Below, one piece after another: positions 17,961 through 38,355 of a DNA stretch of 64,000 bases. The stretch is taken from the NCBI GenBank assembly GCA_963727625.1, contig CAVSHR010000004.1:832001-896000 (forward strand), written 5' to 3'. A model generated the notes under the pieces. That model did not search any database. It saw only the letters and a program-made list of their open reading frames with translations, and had not been told where the DNA came from. This DNA comes from an uncultured delta proteobacterium (GTDB taxonomy: Bacteria; Desulfobacterota; Binatia; UBA9968). Within the stretch, counting starts at the first letter, position 1, and each line of letters starts with the position of its first letter. Made by a program: the position numbers and the translations under genes.

Positions 17961-17961
17961 T

Positions 17962-18469: not shown

Positions 18470-18475
18470 TAAGCA

Positions 18476-18504: not shown

Positions 18505-18542
18505 GCTCGCGGTAGAGCTGCGAGGTGGGCCCGCGAATTGGA

Positions 18543-18602
18543 AGCTAACGCGTCGGCGCTGAGCGCCCGAGACCCGCGAGCACCGCAATCCTCGGGTCGC
18601 CC
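18543..18602 (-). other. Truncated attC (right arm and loop only)
   Basis: Minus strand: GCG(A)CCCGAG..CTCGGGCGCTCAGC gccgacgc GTTAGCT. Its GTTAGCT is the exact reverse complement of the attC1 R'' (AGCTAAC). The left end is replaced by the duplicated gene segment. Confidence 0.65.
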
Positions 18603-18605
18603 CCG

Positions 18606-18965: not shown

Positions 18966-19024
18966 CGACCGCGCTAAGCGGCCGAAGCAAGCGGCGAAGG
19001 TCCGTCTTCAGCACACGGTTAGCC
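18960..19024 (-). other. Integron attC site 2 (65 nt)
   Basis: Minus strand: GGCTAAC cgtgt GCT(G)AAG(A)CGG(A)CC ttcgccgcttgcttc GGCCGCTTAGC gcggtc GTTAGTC, the canonical VCR-like architecture. Confidence 0.88.
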
Positions 19025-20520: not shown

Positions 20521-20542
20521 GTTGCCTCCGCGCGTCTAAGAC

Positions 20543-20670
20543 GGCTAACTATTAAGTGAACGATTTAGACTGCGCAAGCATTGGCCGCCTATTCCAAACA
20601 ACTGCGTTGCTGATAGACAATAACATTTGCGCGCTGTATCGCTTAGTTCCTGCATGAAAGTCAAGATTTA
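20543..20670 (-). other. Cassette-entry site GTTAGCC with attI-like or degenerate upstream sequence
   Basis: Minus strand ...ATCGTTCACTTAATA GTTAGCCGTCTT; these 12 nt are the reverse complement of AAGACGGCTAAC at the other end of the cassette. No proper attC left arm. Confidence 0.5.
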
Positions 20671-22125
20671 TCATCCCGGCAATTGCCGCTTGGAACCGGA
20701 ACGAATGATCTTGCCGTGAATATTCCGTGGCAAGTCGGCTTTTATGGCGATCCGCCGCGGACACTTATAAGCGTCCAGATGTTGCGCGCAAAAGCTCAAA
20801 AGCTCGCGCTCCGTCACTTGTCCGAGAACAGCCACCTCAGCCTGAACGGCTTCGTGGGTGTCTCCAACTCGCACGCCGAAGGCCAATGCTTCGCTTACCT
20901 GCGGATGGAGCCGTAAAACATTTTCTACTTCGGCGGGTTCGACGCGGTTGGCGCCGACCTTGATAAAGGGACTTTTCCTCCCAACAACGTAAACATTGCC
21001 GTCATCATCGGCTCGCCCAAGATCCCCGGAGCGCAGATAACCGTCGTTAACATTCGGATTAGCTTGCAGCGTTTTGCGCCAGAGCGCCGGGCTCTTCGCG
21101 ATGTCGAAAGTGATCTCGCCGATCTCGGGCGCAGGGAGCTCATGGCCTTCCTCATCGAGGATGACAATGGGAAACAAACCATCGATACGACCCACGGAAT
21201 CGCGCGGGCCATTCAGGTTGAATGTAAAAGCCGGGTGAATCTGACTGCCCCCGTAACGCTGGCGGATCATCAGGCCGAAGCGCTTTTCAAAGCGGTGCGC
21301 CACCGCCGGCGACAATGCCGCGCTGCCCGAAACGCACATACGGACTGAGGAAAAATCGAGTTCGTGGCCGGCCGGAATACTCGCCAGCATTTCGAAAATA
21401 AAAGGTACCGCCCAGAGAATTGTCACCCGCTCCCGGTTGATCGCTTCCGCCGCCTTCACCCGCTCGAAGCGCTCTTGAACCACGATTGAGCAGCCGACAA
21501 ATACCGGCATGATCACGTGGTTATTGATCGCCGACCCGCTGTTGTAGGGACGCGTCGAGAACAACACATCATCGGCGCGCAATTCATGCGCCGCCGCTCG
21601 CATCTCCGCACGGTTCAAGATCTGCCGGGCTGAACGTAAATACAGAGAAGGTTCGCCGGTCGTGCCGGAACTCGAAACTGCGAGAATGGGTTCATCGTCA
21701 AAGCTCCGGTGCCGCGCCCCACATTCCTGACGGTGTGGAAAACGAAACTGCTCATCCGGTCCATAGCGGAGAAAGTGCACCACGCTCGGGCAGCGGTGGC
21801 GAACCTCTGCCAAAAAGAAGTCGGATCCGGCGACCACACGAGGCCCTGCTTGTCTAAACAAGACAGGAATTTTTCCCGAAGGCAGCACGGGCAGAACCAG
21901 AAGTCCGAGCGCGCATGCGGCGAAAAACATCACGTGGAATTCGGGCGACGGCGCAATACCGATAATGATCGGATCACCGGGCTGGAGTCCGAGTGCTTGT
22001 AGATACGCCGCGCAGTCCTCGACTTCTTCTATAAGCTCTCTGTAATCGAGTCGCCTTTGCTCTCCGACAATTGCCGGCGCGGTGGCGCGCAGGCGCGCCC
22101 GCTCACTCAAAAGATCGTAGAGCAA
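20671..22125 (-). CDS. Class I adenylate-forming enzyme (acyl-CoA/acyl-ACP ligase)
   Basis: SSSGTTGEP, YGGSQ, SGDLG, VGRK..KVGANRVEPAEVE, LPRNIHGKI. Confidence 0.9.
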   Translation of the reverse strand: MLYDLLSERARLRATAPAIVGEQRRLDYRELIEEVEDCAAYLQALGLQPGDPIIIGIAPSPEFHVMFFAACALGLLVLPVLPSGKIPVLFRQAGPRVVAGSDFFLAEVRHRCPSVVHFLRYGPDEQFRFPHRQECGARHRSFDDEPILAVSSSGTTGEPSLYLRSARQILNRAEMRAAAHELRADDVLFSTRPYNSGSAINNHVIMPVFVGCSIVVQERFERVKAAEAINRERVTILWAVPFIFEMLASIPAGHELDFSSVRMCVSGSAALSPAVAHRFEKRFGLMIRQRYGGSQIHPAFTFNLNGPRDSVGRIDGLFPIVILDEEGHELPAPEIGEITFDIAKSPALWRKTLQANPNVNDGYLRSGDLGRADDDGNVYVVGRKSPFIKVGANRVEPAEVENVLRLHPQVSEALAFGVRVGDTHEAVQAEVAVLGQVTERELLSFCAQHLDAYKCPRRIAIKADLPRNIHGKIIRSGSKRQLPG

Positions 22126-22143
22126 CTGAAGCCTCCGCTGAAC

Positions 22144-22416
22144 TCAAGTCTTTCCCTGAACGCCTTCGATCTTGCGAATTACGAATTGCGCGATGGCAGA
22201 CAGATCCTGGAAGTTTTCCGGCTTGACGTCGCCATCCTCGACGGAAATGGCAAATTCAGTTTCGAGCGCGACCACGAGCTGCAGCGCCCAAACGGAATCC
22301 ATCAGCCCGCCGGCACCTAACTTAAAATCCGCAGAGACTGCGTCTTGCGCTCCTTCCGGATCCGTGAGGCGTTGCACGATTCGCGCAATGCGCTCAGAAA
22401 TATCGCCCGAGCCCAT
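22144..22416 (-). CDS. Acyl carrier protein
   Basis: GLMDSVWALQLVVALETEFAISVEDGDVKPENFQDLSAIA. Confidence 0.85.
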   Translation of the reverse strand: MGSGDISERIARIVQRLTDPEGAQDAVSADFKLGAGGLMDSVWALQLVVALETEFAISVEDGDVKPENFQDLSAIAQFVIRKIEGVQGKT

Positions 22417-22418
22417 TT

Positions 22419-23300
22419 TCACCACCAGGAGTCGCCTCGAAGCATGCGACGCCAAATCCGGGTGTATTCGGGATGCTCGTTCAGATACTTGGTGTAAAGG
22501 GCGCCGAATCCTTCCATGATTTGTTTCTTTACGGGAGCTACCGGTGGATGGATCTGAACGATGATGTTACCGCGCTTATCTGGCAACGTAAAACAAGGAA
22601 GCACCGGCGCTGCAAGCGTCTCCAGAAGCACCAGCGCCCGCGGTTCCAGAAAAAAGCTCCGGTAATCATTGCGTACCAAAACATCGGGCGATCCATCGGG
22701 CTGTCCTCGCACCGAGAGATGAACCACGCGGTTCTCCTTCAAGTGCCGGCGCGCGCTCAGTATTCTTTGCGCGTGATGCCAGAAATCGCCGCGAAAGTCG
22801 ATCACTTCCCAGCGCGTAAAATCACCATGTCCCCAGCGCTCCTCGATGGATTCACTCTCGAGAGGATTGGCCCAACGGCTTACCGGAACACCCTTTTGAG
22901 CGAGAATTGGATCCACGAGCCTGTCCAAGCCATAATAGTGACCGGACAACAGCACCGCACCACCGCCTTCATTTAGAGCACTCTGTAAATAATCCGCGCC
23001 CTCGATCCGTACGAACTGCTCTGCCCGCCACGCCCAGTTTTCCCAGGCAAGTTCCAGGTGATCTTGCCAGCGGCGATACAAGAGATGGCTGCGCGATCGG
23101 CGGCGCACGTGCGCCGGATCATGATGCTTGCGCAGCAGCCTGCCTAAAAATCGTACGCTGCGTCCCGCGTGCGGATAAACTGCGAATACGCAAGCGATTG
23201 TCGCCAATGTGACTAGAAAACACCATCGCGGAGGTGTTCGCCGGGCAAGCCAACGAAGCGGCGGCACTTTATGGAAAACTCGGGAGAAGGAAAATCTCAT
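22419..23300 (-). CDS. LpxL/HtrB-like lysophospholipid acyltransferase
   Basis: VRIEGADYLQSAL..GAVLLSGHYYGLD (Hx4D), APVLP, LNEHPEY..W. Confidence 0.75.
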   Translation of the reverse strand: MRFSFSRVFHKVPPLRWLARRTPPRWCFLVTLATIACVFAVYPHAGRSVRFLGRLLRKHHDPAHVRRRSRSHLLYRRWQDHLELAWENWAWRAEQFVRIEGADYLQSALNEGGGAVLLSGHYYGLDRLVDPILAQKGVPVSRWANPLESESIEERWGHGDFTRWEVIDFRGDFWHHAQRILSARRHLKENRVVHLSVRGQPDGSPDVLVRNDYRSFFLEPRALVLLETLAAPVLPCFTLPDKRGNIIVQIHPPVAPVKKQIMEGFGALYTKYLNEHPEYTRIWRRMLRGDSWW

Positions 23301-23354
23301 CGGTGATAATCGAAAAATCGCTGCAACCGGGCGCTAGCTAGCTCAACCAACCAC

Positions 23355-23758
23355 TCACCGCCTGTTAATCTGCTCGATGTACCCGTCGTCGTCAAGCTTC
23401 TTGAGCAACGTGTGATTGATAATGTTTTCCGGTTTGAGCGTGGCAACTACCGGGTCGGATTCGGCCATGAACTCGATCATCGAAGCGACGCCGACGGCAT
23501 CGATGTAGGGTTTCGGGCTCAGAACTTTCACCGCAGTTTGATAGTGCTCCTCCGCTTTATCGACGCAATCGAGGAGGAGATGCTTTGCCAGGACTTGCTT
23601 CTCCCGCGGCTTGTTTTTGGGGTCGAGGCTGAAGCTGTTGCCGCTGACCACGGCACTTCGACAAAAAGCTCACCGTAATTGAAGGGTCGATTTTCATCAA
23701 TAATCGCAACCCGCGCCGGTACCGCATCTGCCCAACGACTCAAAATGTCGTAAATCAC
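23355..23758 (-). pseudogene. Deletion scar: N-terminus of an AMP-binding paralog joined to the C-terminus of an ABC binding protein
   Basis: MIYDILSRWADAVPARVAII..FNYGELFVEV resembles the start of the 22125 gene; ..PKPYIDAVGV..LKPENIINHTLLKKLDDDGYIEQI resembles SBP ends. Confidence 0.7.
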
Positions 23759-23812
23759 TGCCTCACCATTCGTATTCAGGCGCTTCTAGCGCGAACGGCC
23801 AGTATGCGTCCT

Positions 23813-24904
23813 CTAAGGATGCACGTCCTGCGTAAACCAATCCAGCGGTACTTCCCTGCCCGCCCCCTGCGCTCTGGCGGCGTCATAGACTTTCTTGCCC
23901 ACTGCCGCGAACTGGGCACCCAGTCCGATATTGTTCACAAAGCCGGTGATTTGATCGTCGCGCTCGCGTCCTTTGATCCGGCCTGCGAGCAAGTCCGGCA
24001 ACGTCGGTAAAGATTTCCAGTCGATGCCGCGTTCCGTGGGATGATCGCGCAGCTTGAAATCGTCCCGCTCAAAGTGGGCCAGCGCCGAGGACGTCACGTT
24101 ATTTTCGGTCGCATGGGTGTGCAACACTAGAGGCTGGCAACTCAGCAGCGCCTGGTCGTCAAATTCGTCGCGCTGCATGGCGCTTATGTGCATACCTTCT
24201 GCGAGCGCCCACTTACCGAGAAACGGCGTTCGAGAGTTGGTCGACGTGATGAGGATATCGACATCTTTGGCGGCTTCCTCGTAGGAGTTCACCGGCACGA
24301 TTTCGACGCCTACCCGTGCGCTGGTTTCCCTGGCGAAGTTTTCACGGTTAACTTTAGTCGGGCTGAACACTTTGATGCTCTTGATCTTGCGCGCCTCGCA
24401 GACCGCCATGACTTGAGTCCCAGCCTGCCAGCCAGAACCGACTAAGCCGACCCTTTCCGCGTCGGGTCGCGCGAGGTATTTCGTCGCCACACCATTGGCG
24501 CCGCCGACGCGAAAGCGCTGCAGCACACCGTCGTTCATGATCGCCAACAGCTCGCCGTTGGCCGTGCTGAAGAGCATGACGATCCCCATCCAGCGATCGC
24601 CCGGCAATTTGGGCAATTTTTCGCGGCGCACGCCTCCGCCGGTGTTCCGCCAGGCAACGATATCCGACGAGAAGCGCAGCGCCGCCGTGCCGAAGTGAGG
24701 ACAAGCACCGGTCATGCTTTTCAGATAATGCGCCATCGGTCCCTCGGCGTTTTGCGCCGCCGCCGTCGGCGAGTGCACGTCCGAGCGTGGCGCCGCCACG
24801 GCAATCCCGTCGCCCATTTCCTTGTATAGTATCTCCAGCGCCTCCATGGTGTCTTTCATGGTGAGCAATTGATCGATTTCTTCGTTGTTGATAAACAGCG
24901 GCAT
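23813..24904 (-). CDS. Ornithine cyclodeaminase/mu-crystallin family protein
   Basis: LFSTANGELLAIM..LQRFRVGG, VGSGWQA, DILITSTN, GLGAQFAAVG. Confidence 0.9.
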   Translation of the reverse strand: MPLFINNEEIDQLLTMKDTMEALEILYKEMGDGIAVAAPRSDVHSPTAAAQNAEGPMAHYLKSMTGACPHFGTAALRFSSDIVAWRNTGGGVRREKLPKLPGDRWMGIVMLFSTANGELLAIMNDGVLQRFRVGGANGVATKYLARPDAERVGLVGSGWQAGTQVMAVCEARKIKSIKVFSPTKVNRENFARETSARVGVEIVPVNSYEEAAKDVDILITSTNSRTPFLGKWALAEGMHISAMQRDEFDDQALLSCQPLVLHTHATENNVTSSALAHFERDDFKLRDHPTERGIDWKSLPTLPDLLAGRIKGRERDDQITGFVNNIGLGAQFAAVGKKVYDAARAQGAGREVPLDWFTQDVHP

Positions 24905-24967
24905 GATGGCCTCGTGAGTGTTGTTCGCGGGTCGTGATCCCTATAAACGGCGGCTTAGGAAGATTGA

Positions 24968-25996
24968 TTATGGATTCTTGCCCCATAGCCTAGCAAAGAA
25001 TCCTTCGTCGACCAGCTCTTGCACCAAACTATTGTCGAAGAACTGTTCGGGCTTGGCCCGCTTCGCCTTGGGATTTTTTTTGGCGATCTGATCGAGGGTC
25101 ACCTGAAACGCTTGAGCTTTCACCAAGGGAATCTTTTCCATGAAATCGTAGGCGTATTGAAGGCTGCCCTCGAGCATTCCCGGATCGTTGATCTTGGTGT
25201 ACTTGGCGAAAATCGCCTTGGTTTCTTCCTTATGAGTATGCATGAAATAGATCGCCCGGCCGTATGCGCGAATGAAAGCTTTGGCCGCCGGGCGATGTTC
25301 TCGTACCCAGCGTTTTGAAGTGGTGAGGCCGATATGCATAAAAGGAATATCTTCCTTTGCCAGGTTGGCGAGCATCTTCATGCCGGCCTTCTGTGCCAAA
25401 TAGACCATCGGCTGCGACATCGGCGCGGCAAAAATGGTTTTCTTCGACAGTGCCGCGGCGAGCTCGGGCATGCCGCCGATTTGAATGAAAGGAACATCCT
25501 TGGCGGCTTCAAGCCCGTATTTGGAGAGCAACATGCGCATGCCAAAATCGGTGGACGCGCCGAATCGGGTAACGCCAACCACCTTGCCGCGTAGATCCGT
25601 AACCTTTTTGATTTCCGGCGCGGCCATGATGTAAAACGCGACCACGTTGGTGATGGCGCCCATCGCCACGAGGTCACCACCGTTCAAAGCCGCGTCGACG
25701 ATCACCTGGCTGTTGGCGCCGGACAAAACGATGTCGCCTGCCAGGGTGGCCCGCGCCACCGTCGGCGAGCTGGCGATGTAAACCAGCTCCATGTCCAATC
25801 CCTCTTGTTTCAGCAACCCCGCATCGTTCATCACCCAAAAGGGCGAATTGAGCGCGCTGACTGCCGACCAGGCAATGACGAATTTCTCTCCTCGCGCAGA
25901 GTTGGGTAACGCCAGATTGATAAACAAACACAAGTAGACAGCTACGCTAGCAAGCCGCGCGTGAATCCTTTTACTGCTTAGCCAATTTTTTTGCAT
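24968..25996 (-). CDS. ABC substrate-binding protein (TauA/NMT1 type)
   Basis: PFWVMNDAGLLKQEGLD, LRGKVVGVTRFG, DNSLVQELVDEGF. Confidence 0.9.
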   Translation of the reverse strand: MQKNWLSSKRIHARLASVAVYLCLFINLALPNSARGEKFVIAWSAVSALNSPFWVMNDAGLLKQEGLDMELVYIASSPTVARATLAGDIVLSGANSQVIVDAALNGGDLVAMGAITNVVAFYIMAAPEIKKVTDLRGKVVGVTRFGASTDFGMRMLLSKYGLEAAKDVPFIQIGGMPELAAALSKKTIFAAPMSQPMVYLAQKAGMKMLANLAKEDIPFMHIGLTTSKRWVREHRPAAKAFIRAYGRAIYFMHTHKEETKAIFAKYTKINDPGMLEGSLQYAYDFMEKIPLVKAQAFQVTLDQIAKKNPKAKRAKPEQFFDNSLVQELVDEGFFARLWGKNP

Positions 25997-26180
25997 AGAC
26001 ACCTCATAGTTCAGGAAAACTTTGATCGATCGGAAGTAATCTCGCCAAATAGGTATCATCGCTGGACAAGACCGGTCAACCAGCGCAGTCAATTTCTCCC
26101 TTCTTAATCAGAAATGGCTGGACAAATGGCTGTTGGGTATCGATACTGGCGAGGCAAAGCGTTACTCTCCGAGTTCAACC

Positions 26181-29100
26181 ATGCCTGTGCCCATCGCAGC
26201 GATCTTCGTAAGCTCCACCTGGGTGGATTTGCAACCCGAACGGGCCGCCGTTGAAAAAGCGCTCCATCGCTTCCATGAGGCGAAGTTTGTCGGCATGGAA
26301 TATTTAGGCAGCCGCGATGAAACGACGCGCCGCGCATCGCTCGACGAAGTCGATCGCTCGCAGCTCTACGTTGGAATCTTCGCCGCTCGCTACGGGTCAG
26401 GGATCACCGAGGCGGAATATCGCCGCGCCCGAGAGCGCCAGCTCGATTGTCTAATTTATTTTAAAGCCGAAGACGCCATCGCGCCGGAGATGCGCGATGC
26501 CGACGCAGCGAGCGCGCAACGCTTGGCCGGCCTCAAAGAGGAATTGCGTCACCACACCGTCACGACGTTTTCGACCGCCGACGATCTCGCCGTTGAAGTC
26601 ACCGCCGACGTACACCGCTGGCTGTTTGATAAATTTCTCAAGGAACGTTTGCAGCAGGAATCGGTCGGCGAAATTTTTAGCTCAAAGACCGGTGAGATTA
26701 ATGCATCCGGCGCGGAAGCCTTCCGGCTCCAGGTCGGCTCATCGCTCGGCAGCGTCCTCTACGCGGCAGCCACGCCGGCACCGCGCCGCCGAACAACCCC
26801 GCTATTACCCAACGTCAGGCGCTTCCGCGGTTTGATCGATCGCACCATCGAAGTCGAAACCACGCTGGCGGCCCTGCCCACGGCGATACCCATCGAGATC
26901 CATGGCGAGACCGGCGTGGGCAAGACGGTGTTGCTGCGCACCATCGCGTATCATCCAAATTTGACCGGCAATCCCGATGGCGTCGTCTACCTCGACCGTG
27001 TCGGCGGCGAGCCCGCTGAAGACTTGCAGCAATGTTTGTACGAAAGTTTTTATGAAAGTGCGCCGCGGATCAAACCGCGCGAGGGCGAACTGCGCCAATT
27101 ACTGCGCGAACCGCGCGCCCTCGTTTTGCTCGATGATGTAACCCAACCCCAACCGGAGCTTGAGTCGCTCTTCAACCTACTGCCGAATTGCTTGTTTTGC
27201 ATCGCTTCCGAAGAACGACGCCTTCACGGCGAGGTTAAGGCGATCGCCCTCACAGGTTTGTCCGCCGCAGACGCGCTGACCTTGACCGAACGCGAGCTCG
27301 GCTCGACGCTTTCCGAAAAGGACCGCGCCGCGGCGCGCCAGCTCTGCGGGCAAGTCGATGGCATTCCGTCCCGGGTGATTTTGGCGATCGCGAGCGCGAA
27401 ACAACAAAGCATTCCTCTTGCTGATTTCGGCACGGCCGACGAATCCACTCGATCTTCCGAACAATCGCTGCGGCACAATATCGAGTCACGCAATACTACT
27501 GAGCGGCGCGTTCTGGCAATGCTCGGCGTGCTCGGCGCATTCGTCTCCAAGGACGCCCTTGCCGCCTGCCTGCCCTCCGGGTCTCTCGAGGCACCGTTGG
27601 AAGCGCTCGTGGATGGCAAATTGATCCAGATCGAGGGCAGCACGATCTCGTTATTCCATGGTGTGGCAAACGCCATGCAAACTGTAACCGACGCGGACGG
27701 AACCTGGCTTGAAGCTCTGCCCAGATTGGCCAGTTGGTCTGAACAACATCGTGCCAATGCCGAAGCGCTCTTGCTTAACTCGGAAGTGCTTCAACGGGCC
27801 ACCGACTGGGCGGCAAACCATGCCCAATGGCCCGAGGTTCTGCGCTTGGTGCACGCTCTCGAACCGACCTTGAGCGCCAGTGGTCGTTGGATGACGTGGG
27901 AGAAATTGCTTGACCTTGCCGCACGCGCCTCCGAAGCATTGGGTGATAGCGCGAGCCGTGCCTGGGCGCTGCATCAATTGGGCAGCCGGGCGATTTGCCA
28001 AGGTGAACGGGAGTCCGCAAATAACTTCTTGCAGCAGGCATTAGCCTTGCGCGTCGAGCTCGGCGACCATTGGGGCGCCGCGCTGACCCGGCACAACTTG
28101 GATCTCTTGCGGCCGCCCGTTTTACCCGGTGGCAGCAGCGCGCCACAGCCATCGGCGAAACACGATGGAGAAATCCCAACGGCTCGGTCCAAGCTAGCCA
28201 GGATTCCCCGCGTGCTTAAATTGACCGGCCTTGGAATCGTGGCGCTCGCCACCGGATTAGCCGCGCAAATTTTTTGGCGCCATGCGGCGATTCCGTTCAG
28301 GTTGGAATTCTCGCCGCCGAGTTTGGAGTTTGTGAGCGCGGCGCTCAATCAACCTAGCCCGGAGCAAACCCTGAGCGTCACCAATCCGGGAAACGCATCG
28401 CTGACCATCCGTAACGCGAGCCTTAGCGGCCCGAGCAGCGGCGCTTTCACTCTGATCGAAAACCGATGCGAGGCTAAACTGCTATCCCCTGGCTCTGCGT
28501 GCAGCGTTCGTCTACGCTTCACACCCGGTAGCACCGAACCAAGCACGGCCCGGCTGATCTTCAACGAAAGCGGCGGCGATCAAACCGCAACAATCGACCT
28601 GCGCGGCGGCATTGAATCGGCCCCCGAACCGACGGCCGCTCCGGTTTTGTCGGTACGGCCCGAATCGGTTGAATTCGGCGGTCGCGAGGTCGGCAACCGA
28701 GGGCGCATCGAGATTACCGTCATCAACAGCGGCAACGCTCCACTGCTGTTGGGCAAATCATCGATTGCCGGCAGCGCTGCCGAAGACTTTGCGGTGGCCC
28801 GCAACGCTTGCGCTAACAGGCCAATCGCACCGCAGGCCGAATGTGCCATCGATCTCACTTTTACTCCCCGCGCCGAGGGCGTGCGCGATGCCGCGCTGGT
28901 TTTAACCGCAAATGACGGCGCGCGCCAGCAAATCACGTTACGCGGCGCAGGAATTTCCCGGCCGGTCGGCGCGATCAGGGCGGAACCGGCCGAAGTGGGA
29001 TTCGGCGAAGTTGATTTACGTCGGCGCGCGGAAGGACAAATAAATCTTGTCCATGGCGGCGCTGCCGCCGTTGAGATCGGCAGAATTGCAATCCGTGGCA

Positions 29101-30476
29101 ACCAAGCCAGCGACTTCACCATCACCGCCAATGGCTGTCAGGGTATTACTCTAGCCGCAGGCAGACGCTGCCGGCTGATCGTAAGTTTTGCGCCGAGCGA
29201 GCCGGGCCGCCGCGAGGCGACCTTGATCATCGCCGACAACACCCCCACTGGCGAGCGCAGAATTCCGTTGACGGGTTTCGGCCGTACTCCAGCGGTGGCG
29301 CGCCTACAGTTCGATCCCGAATTCCTCGACTTCGGAGAACGCGCTCCGAATGCTCCGCCGTTGTTGCGCGGCGTTCTCGTTCGAAATAGTGGCAGGGTCG
29401 ATGTGCGCATGGGCCGCGCGGCAATTTTTGAAGCTAATGCGCGCAATTTTTCGATCAATTCCAATAGTTGCCAGGCTACATTGAGGCGTGAAGCGAGCTG
29501 CCGGATCACCGTAGCTTACCGAGCGCTGGCGGCAGGGGCGCACGACGCCGTGCTACGCATCGAATTTGACCGCGCCCGACGCGACATTGGACTGCGCGGC
29601 CATGCGTCAGCCAAGCCAATTCCGATCGCAGGTTTCGCCCCAAGGCGGCTCGACTTCGGCGAGCAAATTTTGCGCGGCCGGGGCGGGAGCCGGGATGTTA
29701 CCGTGCAAAACCGGGGAACCGGCGAGTTAGTCATCACCCGCGTGGAAATCAGCGGAAGCAACAGCTTCGCCGTGGCAAATCGCTGCACCACGCCGATCCG
29801 CGAGCGCGCCAGTTGCATGCTGCGCGTCAGCTTTTCACCGAGCACCCGCGGCCGCCAAAGCGCGGTTCTGCTCGTCGGCCACAACGCCGCCAACAGCCCT
29901 CAACGGATCCCTCTAAGCGGCGTCGGCGCTCTGCCTGCGACGCCGAACATCGACGTCAATCGCGAGCGCCTTCAATTTGGTGATCAGACGGCCGGCACCA
30001 CCAGCGCAGCACAAACGGTGACGATCACGAGCACGGGAGCGGCGCCTCTGGCGATCCGTGCGGTCTCCATTGAAGGCCGTCAAGCTGCTAATTTTACGAT
30101 GAGGGACGACTGTGCCAATCGGGTGCTTTCTCCTCGTGAGCGGTGTCAGATTTCCCTGCGCTTCGCGCCGAAGGCACAGGTGGCGGCCCGAGCTGCGTCA
30201 ACAAAGCAGCGCACCGCTGCTTTGGTCATCAACCATAATGCTGCGCGGAGTCCACGTAGAATCACCGCCAACGGCACGGCGGTGATAAAACCTACGAAAC
30301 CGGTAATTCCACGGGGTCTCAAGGTCGATCCCGATATCCGGGTTTTCGGGAGCGGCTGGTGCTGCACTAATGGTAGTGTTCAAAAATCAACACGCGCGCA
30401 GTGTGCCGAAAAGAAGGGAAGTTTCTTTGCGGACCAGCAAAGCGCTCAGAGCCGCTGCATTCCGGTCATTCGATAA
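26181..30476 (+). CDS. DUF4062 - STAND NTPase - TPR - TM - 6x Ig-like (choice-of-anchor D/ASH type) - Cys-rich tail protein
   Basis: IFVSSTWVDLQPER..GME..LYVGIFAARYGSGITEAEY; GETGVGKT; LVLLDDV; AWALHQLG..ALALR.ELGD; hydrophobic LTGLGIVALATGLAAQIFW; six P..L.FG..N.G..C..C..F.P..L.G repeats; GWCC..C..C. Confidence 0.85.
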   Translation: MPVPIAAIFVSSTWVDLQPERAAVEKALHRFHEAKFVGMEYLGSRDETTRRASLDEVDRSQLYVGIFAARYGSGITEAEYRRARERQLDCLIYFKAEDAIAPEMRDADAASAQRLAGLKEELRHHTVTTFSTADDLAVEVTADVHRWLFDKFLKERLQQESVGEIFSSKTGEINASGAEAFRLQVGSSLGSVLYAAATPAPRRRTTPLLPNVRRFRGLIDRTIEVETTLAALPTAIPIEIHGETGVGKTVLLRTIAYHPNLTGNPDGVVYLDRVGGEPAEDLQQCLYESFYESAPRIKPREGELRQLLREPRALVLLDDVTQPQPELESLFNLLPNCLFCIASEERRLHGEVKAIALTGLSAADALTLTERELGSTLSEKDRAAARQLCGQVDGIPSRVILAIASAKQQSIPLADFGTADESTRSSEQSLRHNIESRNTTERRVLAMLGVLGAFVSKDALAACLPSGSLEAPLEALVDGKLIQIEGSTISLFHGVANAMQTVTDADGTWLEALPRLASWSEQHRANAEALLLNSEVLQRATDWAANHAQWPEVLRLVHALEPTLSASGRWMTWEKLLDLAARASEALGDSASRAWALHQLGSRAICQGERESANNFLQQALALRVELGDHWGAALTRHNLDLLRPPVLPGGSSAPQPSAKHDGEIPTARSKLARIPRVLKLTGLGIVALATGLAAQIFWRHAAIPFRLEFSPPSLEFVSAALNQPSPEQTLSVTNPGNASLTIRNASLSGPSSGAFTLIENRCEAKLLSPGSACSVRLRFTPGSTEPSTARLIFNESGGDQTATIDLRGGIESAPEPTAAPVLSVRPESVEFGGREVGNRGRIEITVINSGNAPLLLGKSSIAGSAAEDFAVARNACANRPIAPQAECAIDLTFTPRAEGVRDAALVLTANDGARQQITLRGAGISRPVGAIRAEPAEVGFGEVDLRRRAEGQINLVHGGAAAVEIGRIAIRGNQASDFTITANGCQGITLAAGRRCRLIVSFAPSEPGRREATLIIADNTPTGERRIPLTGFGRTPAVARLQFDPEFLDFGERAPNAPPLLRGVLVRNSGRVDVRMGRAAIFEANARNFSINSNSCQATLRREASCRITVAYRALAAGAHDAVLRIEFDRARRDIGLRGHASAKPIPIAGFAPRRLDFGEQILRGRGGSRDVTVQNRGTGELVITRVEISGSNSFAVANRCTTPIRERASCMLRVSFSPSTRGRQSAVLLVGHNAANSPQRIPLSGVGALPATPNIDVNRERLQFGDQTAGTTSAAQTVTITSTGAAPLAIRAVSIEGRQAANFTMRDDCANRVLSPRERCQISLRFAPKAQVAARAASTKQRTAALVINHNAARSPRRITANGTAVIKPTKPVIPRGLKVDPDIRVFGSGWCCTNGSVQKSTRAQCAEKKGSFFADQQSAQSRCIPVIR

Positions 30477-30610
30477 TCGCCGATCATGATGATTTGCGCT
30501 TTAACTTTCATGGATCGTGCGAGTGGTGCCGCGCGCATCCCACGCGCAAGATTTTCTTGCATTCGCGCGCGCGCTATTCTATGTTTGCAATAGTTTAGCG
30601 CGGATCAACT

Positions 30611-31804
30611 ATGAGTCTTCGCAACCAAACCACCATCGTCGCCGTCGGTGAGACCCCAACGGATCGTTTAGGATCGAAACCGGGTGAGCCGCGCAAGTCC
30701 AGCGCCGAATATATTTCCTGGGCCATGCGCCTTGCCTTGGAAGAATCCGGTCTCAGCTTGAAAGACTTGCAGGGCCAGGGTCTCGGTGTCACCATTCCCA
30801 CCGCTTACCCGCAACCCTTCTGGCCGGAGGAAGTCGCGGAAATTCTCGGCATCACGCCGGGATTCTTGCAGGGCGGCGCCACCGGCGGCGCCGGTGCCGT
30901 TTCACTGCTCGGCGGCATGGCTGCGGCGATCAATTCAGGGATAATCGACATCGCCCTGGTATGCGGTTCCGCCGCGCCATTCTCCGAACACTGGGGCGGC
31001 GGCATTCAACCCGGCGACATGCGCGATTGGGAAATTCCCTACGGCACCATGGGACCGAACAGCAAAATCGCCATGGTCATGCGACGCTATATGCACCAAT
31101 ACGGGGCGACGCTGGATCATTTCGGCAAGATCGCCGTTGCCGGCCGCTATCACGCGAGCTTGAACCCGCTCGCTTATCTGCGCAAACCGATCACCCTCCA
31201 AGACTACAAAGAATCTCGCCTGGTCGCCGATCCGGTGCGCTTGCTCGACTGCGTCATGCCGGCCAATGGTGGAAGAGCCTACATTCTCGCTTCTCCGGAG
31301 CGAGCGAAAACACTACGCAAGAAACCGATTTACCTAAAAGGATTTGGCGAACGGAGTAATCCATCCTACGGCCCGCGCGCCGGCTCCGATGCGCTTGTCA
31401 TGGGGGTCAAAGACGCCGGCAAAGTCGCTATGGAGATGGCCGGCGTCAAGCATGGCGACATTAATTTCCTTGAACTCTACGACGATTACATCATCGTGGT
31501 TTATTTGCAGATCGAAGACCTCGGTTTCTGCGCCAAGGGAGATGTCAGTTTTTACGAGCGGACGGATTTTACCTTCAATGGGAAGCTGCCGATCCAAACC
31601 GGCGGCGGCATGATCAACTGCGGCCAACCATCGACTGCCGGCGGTACGCTGCATATCATCGAAGCCGTGCGCCAATTGCGTGGTGAAGGCGGCGACAGAC
31701 AAGTACCGAACGCAAAGGCCGGGCTTGTCACCGGCTTGGGCGTGCTTCCCTACGGCAAAAACCTTGGCTGCTGCGCGGTGGCCATCCTCGGAAACGAAAT
31801 GTAA
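30611..31804 (+). CDS. SCP2-type thiolase-like protein
   Basis: IVAVGET, HASLNP.A, LLDCV, LELYDDY, QTGGG, EAVRQLRGEGGDRQV. Confidence 0.9.
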   Translation: MSLRNQTTIVAVGETPTDRLGSKPGEPRKSSAEYISWAMRLALEESGLSLKDLQGQGLGVTIPTAYPQPFWPEEVAEILGITPGFLQGGATGGAGAVSLLGGMAAAINSGIIDIALVCGSAAPFSEHWGGGIQPGDMRDWEIPYGTMGPNSKIAMVMRRYMHQYGATLDHFGKIAVAGRYHASLNPLAYLRKPITLQDYKESRLVADPVRLLDCVMPANGGRAYILASPERAKTLRKKPIYLKGFGERSNPSYGPRAGSDALVMGVKDAGKVAMEMAGVKHGDINFLELYDDYIIVVYLQIEDLGFCAKGDVSFYERTDFTFNGKLPIQTGGGMINCGQPSTAGGTLHIIEAVRQLRGEGGDRQVPNAKAGLVTGLGVLPYGKNLGCCAVAILGNEM

Positions 31805-31810
31805 GAATTT

Positions 31811-32242
31811 ATGGCCGAAGTAGACGTTAGAAAACCGGTGCCCGCGATCACCCCCGAAGCCAAACCTTTTTGGGACGCCGCAGCGCAGAGCCGTCTGGTG
31901 ATGCAACACTGCAAAGATTGCGGCGCTTGGGTGTGGACACCTCGACCGTTGTGCAACGAGTGCGGCAGCGAGCACATCGAGTGGACGCCGATGAGCGGCA
32001 ACGGCGAAATTTATTCCTTTACCGTAATCCGCCAAGTGGTCGGCCGGGCCGCATCTCAAGCTTTCGCGCCTGACATCCCCTATGTCATTGCCTGGGTTGA
32101 TCTCGACGAAGGTCCGCGCATGATCACGAACATCGTAAATTGCCCCGTTGAAGACGTTACGCTCAGCATGAAAGTCTCGGTAGTCTTCGAGCAAGCATCA
32201 AAGGACATTTGGCTGCCTAAATTCAGACCGGCCGTCGGTTGA
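31811..32242 (+). CDS. Zn-ribbon OB-fold (DUF35) protein, thiolase partner
   Basis: PFWDAA, CKDC..CNECGS, PYVIAWVDLDEGPRM. Confidence 0.92.
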   Translation: MAEVDVRKPVPAITPEAKPFWDAAAQSRLVMQHCKDCGAWVWTPRPLCNECGSEHIEWTPMSGNGEIYSFTVIRQVVGRAASQAFAPDIPYVIAWVDLDEGPRMITNIVNCPVEDVTLSMKVSVVFEQASKDIWLPKFRPAVG

Positions 32243-32249
32243 ATTCCCC

Positions 32250-32790
32250 CAGCGCACGCACGCCCGCGAAACCAAAAGCTTATCGCCGTCGCCCTGCACA
32301 CCATGGCACATGGCGCCGTTAGCCAAGTAAACCTGCCTCGCCCAAGGAAGCGGCGAAGGAAATGTTTTATTTGGCGCGGCGCTTCGGCGGCGCCAATTTC
32401 CCGTTCCCAACGATGTTTCAGCGCCGCGATCACCAAGCTCTTGAATCGAAAGGCTGAAGAGACGATGTCTCCGGCAGCGCATCGATGCATAAGTGAATAT
32501 TGGGCCGCATAGGGGCCGCTGGAAAATGGCACCACCGCCACCCCGCGGGTTGATGTGACGGAAGCGAACTTCACCTTTGGGCCCCTTCCATTCGACGTTA
32601 TACATGGTCTGGCGCACCCCAGTGAAGGGAAGCACGCGCTCCACGGTAAAGCCCCTCAAGTATTTTTCCGCATACTGTTTGGCGATTTCCTTGGCCGGGT
32701 CCAACGAGACCGCTTCACCGGGACCGTACTCTGGATTTCCATTTGCGTCGCGATGATCTGAATGGCTTGGAGTACTGCTAAAAATGCAAA
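32250..32790 (-). pseudogene. Fused remnants of a PepSY-like protein and a cytochrome c
   Basis: AKEIAKQYAEKYLRGFTVERVLP..YNVE..HINP followed by VYLANGAMCHGVQGDGD (CxxCH with the first Cys lost). Confidence 0.45.
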
Positions 32791-33002
32791 TAATGAAAGC
32801 CAACGACTTGCGTGCAAAGCGACGATCGGTAATTTCATGGAACAAAACCTCCGCTACAGCGATGTCCCCCCTTCCATACTCGCGGCAGAACGCTAGTGTC
32901 AGGAAAGGTGGCGTCATCACTCAGTGCTTTTTTAGTTTTTCTTGTGTTGCTTCGACGACTTGGGTTAATCAAGGAAGAATATCCTTTGCTCTGGAGATTC
33001 CG

Positions 33003-34460
33003 ATGGAAGAGATCCGTATCATCGATACCACCCTGCGCGACGGCAACACTAGTCTCTGGGCGCACAATATGACGACGGGCATGATGCATCCGGTCCTGCG
33101 CCCCATGGATCAGGCCGGCTTCGATGGAATGGAGTTCTTCGTCAGCGGCCGCTTCAAGAAAGTCGTCCGCGAGCAGCGCGATAATCCCTGGGACTGGGTA
33201 CGTTACGGTCACAAGGAGATCAAAAATACCCGTCTGCGCTACCACGGCGGGTTGAGCAGTGGCTTTACGCTTACCCCGGCTTGCATTCCCCGTCTGATCA
33301 TTGAGCGGGTGGTTCACTACGGCATCACGCTGACCCGGCTTTCCGATCCGTGGAACGATTATGACAAGCTCGGCAAGGAGGTCGCCGAGCTAAACACCCT
33401 TGGTATGGAATCGGTGGTCAACATCATTTACTCGATCTCGCCGCGTCACACCGACGATTATTACGCGCGCAAAACGCGCCAGGCGGCGGCGACGAAACCG
33501 TATCGGCTTTGTTTTAAAGACGTCGGCGGCATGCTCACGCCGGAGCGTGCCCGAACGCTCGCGCGCCTGATTCTCGATAACGCCGGAGATGTTCCGGTTG
33601 AATTCCACGCGCACTGCAATAACGGGCTTGCGCCGTTCAACCTTCTAGAAGTTGTCAAGCAAGGGCTTCGCATCGTTCACACTTCGGTGCCGCCGCTCGC
33701 CAATGGTTCAGCGCAACCGTCCATCTTCAATGTCGTGCGCAATCTATGCGCACTTGGCTACAAACCTTTAGTCAACGAAAAGGTGCTCGAACCCATCGAG
33801 CAGCACTTTCGCCGAATCGCCTGGGCAGAAGGCCTACCCATTGGCGCGCCACGCGAATACGACGAGACCTGGTATCGCCACCAGGTTCCCGGCGGTATGA
33901 TTTCCAATCTGCGCCACCAGCTCAAGATGCTCGGCAAAGAAGACAAGATGCAAAATGTGCTCGAAGAAATCGTCCAGGTCCGCGCCGAGTTCGGCTACCC
34001 GATCATGGTTACGCCCTTTGCGCAATTCGTTGGGAGCCAGGCCGCTATCAACACCATGACTGGCGAACGCTACAAGGAAGTCACCGACCAGGTCATTCAG
34101 TACGCGCTGGGACTTTGGGGCAAAGAAGGCGCTGACTATATGGACCCTGAAACTAAAGCGAAGGTGCTCAATCGCCCCCGTGCTCGCGAGCTAGAGAGAT
34201 TTGAACGCCCTGACCTGTCATTGGCGGACGTGAGAAAACAATACGGCGGAGCGGGCCTATCGGACGAAGAATTGCTGCTCCGCTATTACGCCGGACCCGA
34301 GTTCGTTGACGCACTCAAGTCGTCAGCTCCGAGAAAAGAATATCTCGACGCCCGCAAGCCGCTGGTCAAGCTCGTGGAAGAGCTTGTCAACAAAAATCAG
34401 GCGGCGCATGTTTACATCAGGCGCAACGAGTTTACTCTGTCCGCCGGGCGCAATCGGTGA
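33003..34460 (+). CDS. Pyruvate carboxylase B / oxaloacetate decarboxylase alpha-like carboxyltransferase, no biotinyl domain
   Basis: DTTLRDG, LCFKDVGG, EFHAHC, HQVPGGMISN, GYPIMVTPFAQFVGSQA; no EAMKM. Confidence 0.88.
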   Translation: MEEIRIIDTTLRDGNTSLWAHNMTTGMMHPVLRPMDQAGFDGMEFFVSGRFKKVVREQRDNPWDWVRYGHKEIKNTRLRYHGGLSSGFTLTPACIPRLIIERVVHYGITLTRLSDPWNDYDKLGKEVAELNTLGMESVVNIIYSISPRHTDDYYARKTRQAAATKPYRLCFKDVGGMLTPERARTLARLILDNAGDVPVEFHAHCNNGLAPFNLLEVVKQGLRIVHTSVPPLANGSAQPSIFNVVRNLCALGYKPLVNEKVLEPIEQHFRRIAWAEGLPIGAPREYDETWYRHQVPGGMISNLRHQLKMLGKEDKMQNVLEEIVQVRAEFGYPIMVTPFAQFVGSQAAINTMTGERYKEVTDQVIQYALGLWGKEGADYMDPETKAKVLNRPRARELERFERPDLSLADVRKQYGGAGLSDEELLLRYYAGPEFVDALKSSAPRKEYLDARKPLVKLVEELVNKNQAAHVYIRRNEFTLSAGRNR

Positions 34461-34729
34461 GATCAGACCTCGCCCAATTTCGAAACACTTAAGCCGCAGC
34501 CTGGGAACCCCACGACCTTTGTCGGTCCGGGCATATTCCGCTCACGCACCATCCAGCGATATCCGGGCAGTTCTGCGACGGAGGGCGTCCCTACTTTTCG
34601 TTTAATCCAGCTGATTCTTTCCCATGATTCCGAAAACTATTTGGTACCAAGACCGTTTCTAGTGAAGAACCCTGTACAGGAAACCGGGTTTCGCTAAAAC
34701 GTCGGAAGAAAACACAGGAGCAAACAACC

Positions 34730-35275
34730 ATGCTCAAAAGAAAATCGTTCCAGGTTGCCGCCATTTTGGTTGGCGGCGCGCTTGCCCTGCCACCCGTCCT
34801 TCTTGCCGCCGAGAAAGACAACATGATGAAAGACGATAAGGGTAAAATGGTGGAAGAGACGGGCGGGAACATGAAGGAGAATAAAGCCGGCGCCATGAAA
34901 CCGGACAAGGGAAAGATGTCGAAGGACAATATGAAGCAGGAAAAAGGCAAGGCCAAAACCGGCACTGACAAAATGAAAATGAATAAGATGGAAGACAAGA
35001 GGATGTATTCGTCCCGTCTATCCGAATCCCCGCGGGTCGTCGAGTCAGACGAGATCGGCCTGTCCTCCCAACGGCCGTCGCCGGTGGCATCCCGCTTCTT
35101 CGCCGACGGCCGGCCATCGTTATTAGTTAATCACCAAAAAACTCACGACGATGTCTCGGAAGTGCGTGAGTCCTTCGGAAGCTCGGGCACACATGAAGAA
35201 GTCCATCAAATTCAACTGCGCGGCAACTGCTATGACCGGCAATCAATCTCAGCGGTGTCGAGTCACGCCGGTTAA
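34730..35275 (+). CDS. Secreted Met/Lys-rich low-complexity (MXKDX-like) protein; true 3' end probably near 35010
   Basis: Signal peptide then MMKDDKGKM..MKPDKGKMSKDNMKQEK..KMEDK; AGGAG RBS. Confidence 0.6.
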   Translation: MLKRKSFQVAAILVGGALALPPVLLAAEKDNMMKDDKGKMVEETGGNMKENKAGAMKPDKGKMSKDNMKQEKGKAKTGTDKMKMNKMEDKRMYSSRLSESPRVVESDEIGLSSQRPSPVASRFFADGRPSLLVNHQKTHDDVSEVRESFGSSGTHEEVHQIQLRGNCYDRQSISAVSSHAG

Positions 35276-35343
35276 ACCATTTGCCAATTCGTATGACTCC
35301 GCTCCGACTCCAATGCTTTCATATCTTCATCCTGCTTCTCGAT

Positions 35344-36147
35344 TTATTGAACGCTATCGACGAATTGCGCGTCCGCGCGCCGGATGAAGCCCGGCGGGTT
35401 GCCCCGTCGAGAGCGCACTTCGAGCCAATCGCCGCGGGTGCTGACAACGTTGACCCGAACGCCGCTAGGAATATTGGCCACCACTCGAGAGGATGGCGAT
35501 GCGGATTCGAACAAGGTCGTAGCGCGAAGGGTTTGGTAAATTCCCGGACTGACGCCAGCGCGCGACGCAGACACGGGCGGGGGCGGTCGATTGGCGCGGC
35601 TCGAGGGCGGCGCATCCCGTCCTGCGGGCTTAAATTGCGGCCGTCGCTGCTCTGGTTTCGGCGCGGGCGCAGGAGTTTCCAACGGTGGCGGCGATGCAGC
35701 CTTCGGCGGTCTCGGTATGAACAAAGAGGATTGCGATTGTTCGCTCCCCTCGCCAGAAGATTTGTTTTCTTCGGTCGCGGAGGCCAGCGGAGGCCCTTTG
35801 GTTTGCGGGACCAGCGCTTCTGCCACGCTAGTTTTCTGTGGGGTGGGCTCGCGCAGCAGATCGGTTCCAAAATAGACGCCGGCAACGGCGAGGACAATCA
35901 CGACGATTGCGCCCGCGATGATCATCCTCATGTTGCTGTCGACCGCATCCCTCGGCGGCGAAAAGGGCATCATTTGCTGGCGACGATTGCTCACCTCGGC
36001 AGGTCTCGCCGGCGCAGTCGGTTCTGTGGAAGTCGGAGATGGAGCATAAACTGCGGAAGGGTCCGGGGCTCGCCCGATCCTGGCTCCGCACCCCTTGCAG
36101 AAATTGTCTTCCGGATCAATTTGTGTGCCACATTGCGTGCAAAACAT
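35344..36147 (-). CDS. Zinc-ribbon / TM / Pro-rich linker / SH3-like protein
   Basis: MFCTQCG..FCKGCG; TM IIAGAIVVIVLAVAGVYF; C-terminal GVRVNVV..GDWLEVRS..GFI. Confidence 0.8.
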   Translation of the reverse strand: MFCTQCGTQIDPEDNFCKGCGARIGRAPDPSAVYAPSPTSTEPTAPARPAEVSNRRQQMMPFSPPRDAVDSNMRMIIAGAIVVIVLAVAGVYFGTDLLREPTPQKTSVAEALVPQTKGPPLASATEENKSSGEGSEQSQSSLFIPRPPKAASPPPLETPAPAPKPEQRRPQFKPAGRDAPPSSRANRPPPPVSASRAGVSPGIYQTLRATTLFESASPSSRVVANIPSGVRVNVVSTRGDWLEVRSRRGNPPGFIRRADAQFVDSVQ

Positions 36148-36378
36148 ACGCGATTCCTCCAATGGTAAAATCGCGCCGGAGCGCGATTTGCGCAAGAGCG
36201 TATCCAGGCCCTCCGGCATCTTTTACCGCCATCGACGCCGGCATAGCGAGACATAGGATCTCGAAACCAGCCGGTGACGGATCACAATTCCTTGAATTTT
36301 TTAACCCGAAGCGATATTGAAGCCCTAACGCAAATGATTGTTTCTTCCACGGCAAACTTCAACACCCGGAGCCTAATC

Positions 36379-37359: not shown

Positions 37360-37428
37360 GTTGGCTCTTTTCCGGAGACCAAACCGTTAAGTTGTAGCCG
37401 ATCTTCATAGCGAGTAGCGCGGAAGAAA

Positions 37429-38340: not shown

Positions 38341-38355
38341 CGCGAGGAGGAAGGC

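Follow-up and report, generated by a model that had tools for sequence, protein, structure and literature searches.

A candidate transmembrane NLR-like receptor combining a NIR/DUF4062 domain, an NB-ARC module and six Ig-like domains in an uncultured Binatia bacterium

The window analyzed here, a 64,000-nucleotide stretch of DNA from an uncultured delta proteobacterium (GTDB lineage Desulfobacterota; Binatia; UBA9968; assembly GCA_963727625.1, contig CAVSHR010000004.1, positions 832,001 to 896,000 of the forward strand), contains a stand-alone, accessory gene that is one member of a large and apparently uncharacterized protein family. From the N- to the C-terminus, its product comprises a DUF4062/NIR domain, an NB-ARC domain, a short helical arm, a Pro-rich linker, one hydrophobic helix, six immunoglobulin (Ig)-like domains and a tail with four cysteines. 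We consider it probable that this protein is an outside-in receptor resembling NLR proteins (proteins that bind nucleotides and have leucine-rich repeats), which would trigger NAD+ depletion. A first-pass annotation of the DNA had proposed a hybrid of Toll-like receptor (TLR) and NLR, built around a signal transduction ATPase with numerous domains (STAND). The architecture, its conservation and the swapping of effectors among homologues support that proposal; sensing by the ectodomain, passage of a signal across the membrane and NAD+-cleaving (NADase) activity are what we infer from sequence. Features of the receptor gene are given below in window coordinates.

26181..26630, + strand: NIR/DUF4062 domain, predicted TIR-like NADase (Pfam PF13271; aa 1-150)
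26409..26411, + strand: conserved E77, invariant in 27 members
26415..26417, + strand: candidate catalytic Glu E79, at least 90% conserved, by alignment to KpSwz
26631..26855, + strand: linker (aa 151-225) with a degenerate motif preceding the nucleotide-binding oligomerization domain (pre-NOD motif) RLQVGSSLGSVLY (aa 182-194, nt 26724-26762)
26856..27260, + strand: NB-ARC domain (Pfam PF00931; aa 226-360)
26904..26927, + strand: Walker A, GETGVGKT
27120..27140, + strand: Walker B, LVLLDDV
27261..27740, + strand: ARC/winged-helix region (aa 361-520; weak profile matches) with GxP motif GIPSR at aa 394-398
27741..28103, + strand: short helical arm resembling tetratricopeptide repeats (TPR; aa 521-641), with a sub-cut-off TPR_12 match at aa 566-624 (E 1.3e-4)
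28086..28103, + strand: juxtamembrane motif TRHNLD (aa 636-641), at the end of the arm
28104..28211, + strand: linker rich in Pro (6 in 34 residues) and basic stretch next to the membrane (5 K/R), aa 642-677
28212..28280, + strand: predicted single transmembrane helix (aa 678-700), signal anchor with the N-terminus inside, core LTGLGIVALATGLAAQIFW at aa 681-699
28302..30194, + strand: six choice-of-anchor-D/ASH-type Ig-like domains (NCBIfam NF012200), in stretches 28302-28565, 28632-28919, 28926-29246, 29262-29570, 29586-29894 and 29901-30194
30345..30473, + strand: membrane-distal four-Cys tail, GWCC-x12-C-x17-C (aa 1389-1431)

The gene lies in a single open reading frame (ORF; 26133-30476, + strand) that opens with TTG in the ORF listing of the window, and translation from the ATG at 26181 yields an intact product of 1431 aa (26181-30476). 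Because listed homologues sharing the N-terminal domain begin at the equivalent Met, the closest of them reading MPxPIAAIFVSST, this ATG is likely the true start. All motifs quoted in the first-pass annotation are present in the translation (FVSST at residues 9-13, DLQPER at 16-21, RYGSGITEAEY at 70-80, GETGVGKT at 242-249, LVLLDDV at 314-320 and GWCC at 1392-1395), and its combination of DUF4062, STAND module, hydrophobic helix and six Ig repeats was borne out by Pfam, NCBIfam and a Kyte-Doolittle (KD) scan. Of 7999 candidates scored in a word-indexed homologue search that covered proteins of 787-2505 aa, 325 had E<=1e-3. Among the 120 listed, 27 (P0003-P0029) combine DUF4062 with Ig families in precomputed Pfam assignments and share 72-33% identity over 72-100% of the query; the architecture is therefore a conserved one, and the possibility of a recent chimera, against which the annotation had cautioned, does not agree with this result.

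At aa 8-83, the N-terminal domain scores 57.1 bits for DUF4062 (PF13271; cut-off 24.7, E 2.1e-15). Its nearest solved relative is the DUF4062 structure of KpSwz (PDB 10wc; phmmer E 0.0034, family profile E 2.4e-10), and the family profile also matches the N-domain of TEP1 (E 1.3e-3). Residues F9, S11-T13, D16-Q18, E20, R21, R70, Y71, E77 and Y80 are invariant in 27 family members, and E79 is conserved in at least 90%, so that the TEAEY motif (aa 76-80) shows the catalytic conservation on which the earlier reading of this domain depended. In the alignment to the PDB chain, TEAEY lies opposite TEKAF of KpSwz and E79 opposite an Ala; this Ala would correspond to the position of a KpSwz E97A mutant, if the chain begins one residue before residue 15. 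In the accessible text of three 2026 preprints, DUF4062/NIR is described as a TIR-like NADase in phage defence that depletes NAD+, with ADP-ribose and nicotinamide as products. These report catalytic E97 and a cryo-electron microscopy structure for KpSwz (Swarozyc; Osinski et al. 2026, 10.64898/2026.05.01.722283), E108 for PsAvs2, with NIR occurring in Avs2 as well as in further NLR-like proteins (Le Mouellic et al. 2026, 10.64898/2026.09.04.749371), and E87 for Evangelion Eva01 (10.64898/2026.06.25.731849); upon infection, NAD+ drops and ADP-ribose climbs with NIR-Avs (10.64898/2026.09.04.749371). For the window protein, sequence similarity to the solved domains of KpSwz and TEP1 suggests a TIR-like fold, and the N-domain would by homology be an active NADase.

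For aa 238-335, the NB-ARC profile (PF00931) gives 31.4 bits, above its cut-off of 23.5 (E 1.4e-7), and NACHT (PF05729) fits less well, remaining below its own cut-off (15.4 against 26.7 bits). Residues G245, G247, K248, D318 and D319 of the nucleotide-binding motifs are invariant in 53 sequences. The following ARC/winged-helix region gives weak profile matches to the archaeal STAND protein PH0952 (6mfv; aa 306-511, E 6.6e-4) and to a plant NLR (aa 231-415, E 2.9e-3); P396 of its GxP motif is invariant, and the region is otherwise the most variable of the cytoplasmic part, with a mean identity of 49% in close homologues (70% for the linker at aa 151-225). As for the short TPR block of the first-pass annotation, a helical arm of ~120 aa is present, whereas its assignment to TPR stays below the Pfam cut-off (TPR_12, 22.5 against 30.1 bits). 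Within the arm, W570, D589, W595, H598, G601, R624, H630, N639, L640 and D641 are invariant in 27 sequences and T636, R637 and H638 of the TRHNLD motif nearly so, and the motif is retained in members bearing other ectodomains. Only the arm and the Pro-rich linker lie between the ARC region and the membrane helix, with no long C-terminal repeat sensor as in Avs, and Pfam identified neither a leucine-rich-repeat (LRR) nor a canonical TIR family in the receptor at E<=1.

To place this module in its family, aa 215-705 (NB-ARC to helix) were searched against 1.84 billion cluster representatives, yielding 4948 matches at E<=1e-3 and 814 at E<=1e-30. Nearly all of the best 150 representatives cover most of the module. 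The membrane helix proposed earlier recurs in them with a constant spacing from the P-loop (a median of 430 residues): 139 of the 150 contain a 19-mer of KD>=1.6 at 410-523 residues past Walker A, while the score is 1.2-1.6 in six and no such segment exists in five. Of the two flanks, the N-side has more positive residues (K/R) in 79 and the C-side in 28, with equal numbers in 32; in the window protein, whose helix core (681-699) scores 1.65 over 19 residues, there are five K/R in the 15 residues on the N-side and two on the C-side. The only other KD peak (at 444, 1.71) carries K and D and falls in the ARC/winged-helix region. More than 100 residues follow the helix in 134 representatives, 117 of which have Cys there, with an even Cys count in 107 of the 117, compared with 74 of 134 for the corresponding cytoplasmic parts; relatedness among the sequences inflates any binomial significance, and the contrast is still clear. 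Collectively, these features point to a single-pass inner-membrane protein with its N-terminus inside and its C-terminus outside, whose ectodomain would be exported and disulfide-bonded.

Alternatively, the hydrophobic segment might not be a membrane helix and the protein might be wholly cytoplasmic, its Ig array acting as a cytoplasmic sensor in the manner of ciliary ASH/HYDIN proteins. The moderate hydrophobicity of the segment (1.2-1.5 in one subfamily) and the axonemal, cytoplasmic nature of the nearest solved relatives of the Ig repeats (HYDIN, E 1.9e-41; FAP65) could be read in this way. We consider this explanation highly improbable, given that the position of the segment is kept in 139 of the 150 representatives with KD values reaching 2.2-2.75 in many members, that the even-Cys rule is restricted to the part past the segment, and that this part contains LysM, CBM96, CARDB, cadherin-like and choice-of-anchor D domains. 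In bacteria, these domains are extracytoplasmic.

As the host genome encodes two Omp85 loci and LpxC, the host is diderm and the ectodomain would be periplasmic. A VKOR-type thiol oxidase is likewise encoded, and no DsbB was found in the genome (98% completeness). A monoderm, Chloroflexota-type host, suggested by the name of one homologue, was rejected in view of Omp85 and LpxC; names attached to receptor homologues are an unsafe basis for assuming a monoderm host. For the thiolase gene adjoining the receptor, three of four named close homologues (85-90% identity) are labelled 'Candidatus Binatia'.

The ectodomain extends for ~730 residues beyond the helix. The choice_anch_D model (NF012200, NCBIfam) matches six stretches with an overall E of 2.3e-95 (314.4 bits against a cut-off of 45), and Pfam assigns the same repeats to Cep192_D4 (5.4e-41, six stretches), HYDIN/VesB-like Ig (1.7e-34) and ASH (6.8e-32). 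The repeats are mutually 21-35% identical and, on account of this low identity, are old. Each contains the Cys pair noted in the first-pass annotation, 10-11 residues apart, and the 12 Ig cysteines and four tail cysteines are invariant in nine close homologues, while four of the seven cytoplasmic cysteines vary. Judged by typical domain size, six tandem Ig domains could span much of the periplasm. The tail has no Pfam family at E<=1; it is 68% identical in close homologues, all four Cys being invariant. It represents a repeatable module of ~40 aa with four Cys (G[WY]CC..G-x(8-10)-C-x(15-20)-C), which is single in the window protein and in the TIR-bearing P0044, in tandem in P0128 (three copies), P0152 (at least six), P0211 and P0215, and present in P0147 as well. 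Its location at the membrane-distal tip makes this module a candidate binding or docking piece.

The domain composition of the wider family was assessed by Pfam scans of 48 of the 150 representatives, of which 27 bear surface or glycan-binding domains past the helix and 15 no family at 1e-7. Post-helix domains in this sample are ASH/Cep192-type Ig (11), LysM (6), CARDB (4), Big_9/cadherin (4), fn3 (3), CBM96 (2) and PD40 (1). A further 24 representatives, picked for long N-termini and including three re-scans, added DUF11 and PAN ectodomains and, at the N-terminus, DUF4062, Trypsin_2 and zinc ribbons; CHAT and TIR_2 are found at the N-termini of P0126 and P0044, respectively. Effector swapping, which the first-pass annotation had suggested looking for, therefore occurs in homologues (NIR, TIR_2, CHAT, Trypsin_2, zinc ribbons), and ectodomains are swapped too (Ig, fn3, LysM, CARDB, CBM96, Big_9/cadherin, PD40, DUF11, PAN), their length ranging from ~100 to >1100 residues. 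As both ends are exchanged, the unit of NB-ARC, arm and helix is the constant chassis of the family, which by record titles spans several phyla. Walker A lies at residues 50-100 in 88 of the 150 representatives, and most members accordingly have a short N-terminus.

A FastTree phylogeny of 205 NOD regions was used for the coarse split only; it was built rapidly, many of its inner branches are weak and a long branch leads to P0044. It separates 17 cytoplasmic DUF4062-NB-ARC-TPR proteins by a long branch (support 100) from a group of 188 that is almost wholly helix-bearing and includes the window protein. Transmembrane proteins bearing DUF4062 form two clades, one of 11 rows with the window protein, nested among members without DUF4062, and one of 22 rows of the type found in genome G042 (see below). 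A four-member clade holds P0130 (Ig), P0141 (LysM, Ig and CARDB) and P0168 (two LysM). Four cytoplasmic DUF4062 proteins with HEAT or other repeats (P0059, P0107, P0110, P0113) have a strongly hydrophobic 19-mer of KD 1.9-2.65 in their last 10-30 residues, and may, as far as this segment indicates, be tail-anchored NIR proteins.

Short-N members mostly carry a pre-NOD motif of ~25 aa, SGQ[IV]A[IV]G...[IV]QIG.[IV]HGG.V.[IV], directly before the NB-ARC/P-loop; it was found in 27 of 80 related loci (L035-L085 among L018-L097). A matching motif is located near the C-terminus of an ORF encoding a double Ser/Thr kinase, 5-8 kb downstream, in L051, L057 and L072, and a motif of the same type ends a 334-aa ORF in L065. 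This sharing between receptor and kinase resembles the matching-motif pairs of NLRs and effectors in amyloid signalling, as presented in the accessible text of a preprint (Dyrka 2020).

Which part of the protein senses the trigger is the point at which explanations diverge. In one alternative, the STAND protein is tethered to the membrane and its ectodomain serves solely for anchorage or positioning, for example at peptidoglycan or the outer membrane. Its trigger would be sensed in the cytoplasm by the ARC/winged-helix region and helical arm, which might detect, at the inner surface of the membrane, the DNA entry machinery of a phage or one of its proteins; NIR would still be the effector. The variability of aa 361-520 is consistent with such a sensor; many ectodomains of the family are wall- or glycan-binding and often anchors (LysM, CBM96, PD40, CARDB), the characterized NIR and Avs proteins detect cytoplasmic phage proteins according to the accessible literature, and membrane-located defence at the entry site exists in Kiwa, Zorya and SNIPE (PMC13434031, accessible part). 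The arm, by contrast, is short and keeps many invariant residues across differing ectodomains and effectors, a pattern more in keeping with a transducer than with a variable sensor. Ectodomains are moreover exchanged between close NOD relatives (P0130, P0141, P0168), and a range of ~100 to >1100 residues exceeds what an anchor needs. In the closest pair (the window protein and P0003), Ig1 and Ig2 diverge fastest, being 50-54% identical compared with 73-88% for the cytoplasmic regions. The tethered arrangement is thus rather unlikely. The exchange of ectodomains between close relatives, the short and invariant arm and the rapid divergence of Ig1 and Ig2 favour the ectodomain as the variable sensor, from which a signal would cross the membrane.

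The distribution of the gene was analyzed in its host and in related genomes. The host genome (6.6 Mb, 15 contigs) contains a single receptor copy, and no other gene in it matches DUF4062 or gives a strong match to choice-of-anchor D; a genome scan with NF012200 gave six matches above the cut-off, all in the receptor gene. Within the GTDB family, a match at E<=1e-20 is found in four of 90 genomes, its own included, all in one genus (3 of 30 others). Comparison of window segment 24968-31804 with loci L014, L015, L016 and L017 revealed a 65% identical orthologue in the same slot in genome G040, in the order thiolase, receptor, NMT1 binding protein and ornithine cyclodeaminase-like gene, with flanks 92%, 85% and 90% identical. 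In G042, a 35% identical homologue lies one gene away in the same cluster (thiolase 84%, cyclodeaminase 85% identical), and G047 and G050 possess the cluster without the receptor. Because its presence is patchy and the flanks are 84-92% identical, the gene is accessory, and its divergence far outpaces that of the genes around it; the two lineages in one slot may reflect old alleles or repeated insertion.

A receptor that serves signalling other than immunity (envelope state, development or cell-cell interaction), with NIR making a regulatory product or tuning NAD+ without killing, would be at home in the conserved metabolic neighbourhood of the gene, where there is no defence island. Among the record titles of related loci, groups that form filaments or aggregates are frequent (Nostoc, Scytonema, Leptolyngbya, Anaerolineae, Caldilineaceae), and adhesin-type ectodomains (cadherin-like, fn3, Ig) occur in the family. 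NLR-like proteins of such groups have been tied to regulated cell death and non-self recognition in the accessible text of the Dyrka 2020 preprint. The alternative N-domains on the same chassis are, however, death or conflict effectors (TIR_2, caspase-like CHAT, trypsin-like protease), NIR itself is reported as an NAD+-depleting effector in the accessible parts of the three preprints, and patchiness (four of 90 genomes) combined with fast divergence relative to the flanks is typical of conflict genes. We therefore regard a non-immune role as improbable.

The outside-in receptor that we favour would operate as follows. An extracytoplasmic event, for which candidates are a foreign or damage-derived molecule or an envelope disturbance by phage entry or by another cell's attack, would alter the packing or clustering of ectodomains and helices. 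The NB-ARC module would then be freed to exchange nucleotide and oligomerize, NIR domains would assemble and NAD+ would be depleted, and the cell would halt growth or die, as reported for the cytoplasmic NIR-Avs, Swarozyc and Evangelion systems.

Several observations weigh against this reading. The data indicate no ligand. The genomic context lends a defence role little support: the 20 neighbouring ORFs of the window are metabolic or without a Pfam family (by Pfam only, no PADLOC scan being made of them), and among 129 flanking ORFs of 12 related loci there is one clear adjoining defence system, a type II restriction-modification pair in L021. On the protein itself, no Avs or other STAND defence model of PADLOC matches, the NB-ARC match takes in less than half of its profile (positions 21-123 of 248), and the predicted helix, rich in Gly and Ala, has only moderate hydrophobicity. 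Variability in the ARC/winged-helix region equals that of the ectodomain, a pattern that leaves room for a cytoplasmic sensor. Transmission through a single helix to a STAND module has, to our knowledge, no characterized precedent. Kinase, DprA-like 'ShosA' and PycC-like cyclase matches near related loci were left uncounted, as they are probably generic enzymes.

The individual parts of the receptor have counterparts in known systems. Like the window protein, NIR-Avs (PsAvs2) has an N-terminal DUF4062/NIR with a catalytic Glu fused to a STAND NTPase, with NAD+ depletion as the expected output; Avs, however, senses a cytoplasmic phage protein by a long C-terminal TPR-like sensor, whereas the window protein has its ~120-aa arm followed by a membrane helix and a 730-aa ectodomain, and no PADLOC Avs match. 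Swarozyc KpSwz shares the TIR-like NADase activated by assembly and differs in that it has no STAND module, membrane helix or ectodomain and is activated by phage portal binding. STAND proteins with membrane segments have been noted before, as far as the accessible text of two sources goes: a bacterial NACHT class whose C-termini are a 'TM region', with multiple transmembrane regions (Kibby et al. 2022 preprint), and 'transmembrane STAND ATPases' listed among sensors fused to Pepco-associated proteases (10.1101/2025.11.14.688446). Each receives a sentence-length mention and none is characterized; sensing of intramembrane or periplasmic signals was suggested for them in the same sources. They are NACHT proteins or protease-linked, whereas the window protein has NB-ARC, one helix and a large folded ectodomain. 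In other accessible text, a study of diversity-generating retroelements predicts a periplasmic lectin domain in one STAND target, and Kaur et al. 2020 describe vWA components of ternary systems in which wall-binding domains come after transmembrane segments.

TLRs share the logic of an ectodomain, one membrane helix and a cytoplasmic TIR-type domain acting after clustering, by analogy only; their ectodomains are LRRs, a STAND ATPase is absent from them and their TIR domains serve as scaffolds, not as NADases, whereas the window protein has neither LRR nor canonical TIR. Kiwa, Zorya and SNIPE are inner-membrane systems with periplasmic parts, for which detection of phage attachment or DNA entry and relay to a cytoplasmic effector have been proposed (PMC13434031, accessible part), yet they belong to unrelated families and contain neither a STAND module nor an NADase, and several of them are encoded by more than one gene. 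The NIR preprint, in its accessible text, compares eukaryotic NIR-STANDs to APAF-1, whose repeat sensor consists of WD40 propellers; TEP1, NWD1, NWD2 and NPHP3 are among the proteins with N-terminal DUF4062/NIR followed by a STAND NTPase. Unlike the window protein, these four are cytoplasmic and have no membrane helix. Their NTPase is presumably NACHT-type rather than NB-ARC-type.

The accessible main text of the three NIR preprints contains neither 'transmembrane' nor 'extracellular', and their supplements may list such architectures; 'periplasm' is likewise absent from that of Le Mouellic et al. 2026 (10.64898/2026.09.04.749371). Our literature search found no description or test of this family or architecture, transmembrane STANDs being mentioned in passing only. 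The first-pass statement that no characterized example is known thus agrees with the literature consulted, although the idea of transmembrane STANDs had already been voiced in print.

Bacterial STAND immune proteins in the consulted literature sense their triggers in the cytoplasm, after the invader's entry. Were a STAND receptor to have its variable end beyond the inner membrane, NLR-type immunity would reach out to the envelope, where a phage or rival cell makes first contact; such a receptor also raises the question of how one membrane helix can control the STAND oligomerization switch. The modularity of the family makes this testable, as ectodomains can be exchanged or clustered with NAD+ as the readout, and a characterized example could be set, as a new reference, beside TLRs and the NIR-bearing proteins of eukaryotes (for example TEP1). 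More tentatively, it is possible that the family constitutes a large overlooked bacterial class, in which a constant chassis of NB-ARC, arm and helix carries interchangeable outer sensors and interchangeable inner death effectors. The cue could then be wall fragments, a molecule from a competitor or some part of a phage on its way through the envelope, and the effectors would be NIR or TIR NADases or caspase-like or trypsin-like proteases, amounting to a prokaryotic counterpart of TLR and NLR combined in one protein. Two 35% identical lineages and an empty slot within one genus would, on the same premise, represent a long-lived polymorphism of a recognition locus.

The surroundings of the receptor gene in the window (12694-41232) are dense in genes of acyl-CoA and anaerobic-type metabolism, among which are the following.

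12694..41232: pyruvate:ferredoxin oxidoreductase-like gene, AMP-dependent ligase, carboxylase subunit and two CoA-transferase subunits
12694..41232: thiolase-like and DUF35/ChsH2 OB-fold pair, several NMT1-type binding proteins, ornithine cyclodeaminase-like gene and DHDPS-family enzyme

Two identities of the receptor suggested by profile matches were rejected: the Dot/Icm effector LegT (NF045527; 33.5 bits against an equivalog cut-off of 1200, Ig region only) and PADLOC mad8, whose match is confined to the P-loop (E 1.4e-4). A scan for promoters and terminators gave sites at chance level (2 against 1.5 expected and 9 against 6.6 expected); a promoter-like site (26119-26147) and a hairpin (30531-30547) that flank the receptor gene prove nothing. 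Among plasmids in PLSDB, none of the 10 matching records covers at least 80% of the receptor. Two large Streptomyces plasmids (H7 and H10) contain partial NB-ARC-arm matches, one of them within a gene annotated choice-of-anchor D, and family members may be plasmid-borne in actinomycetes.

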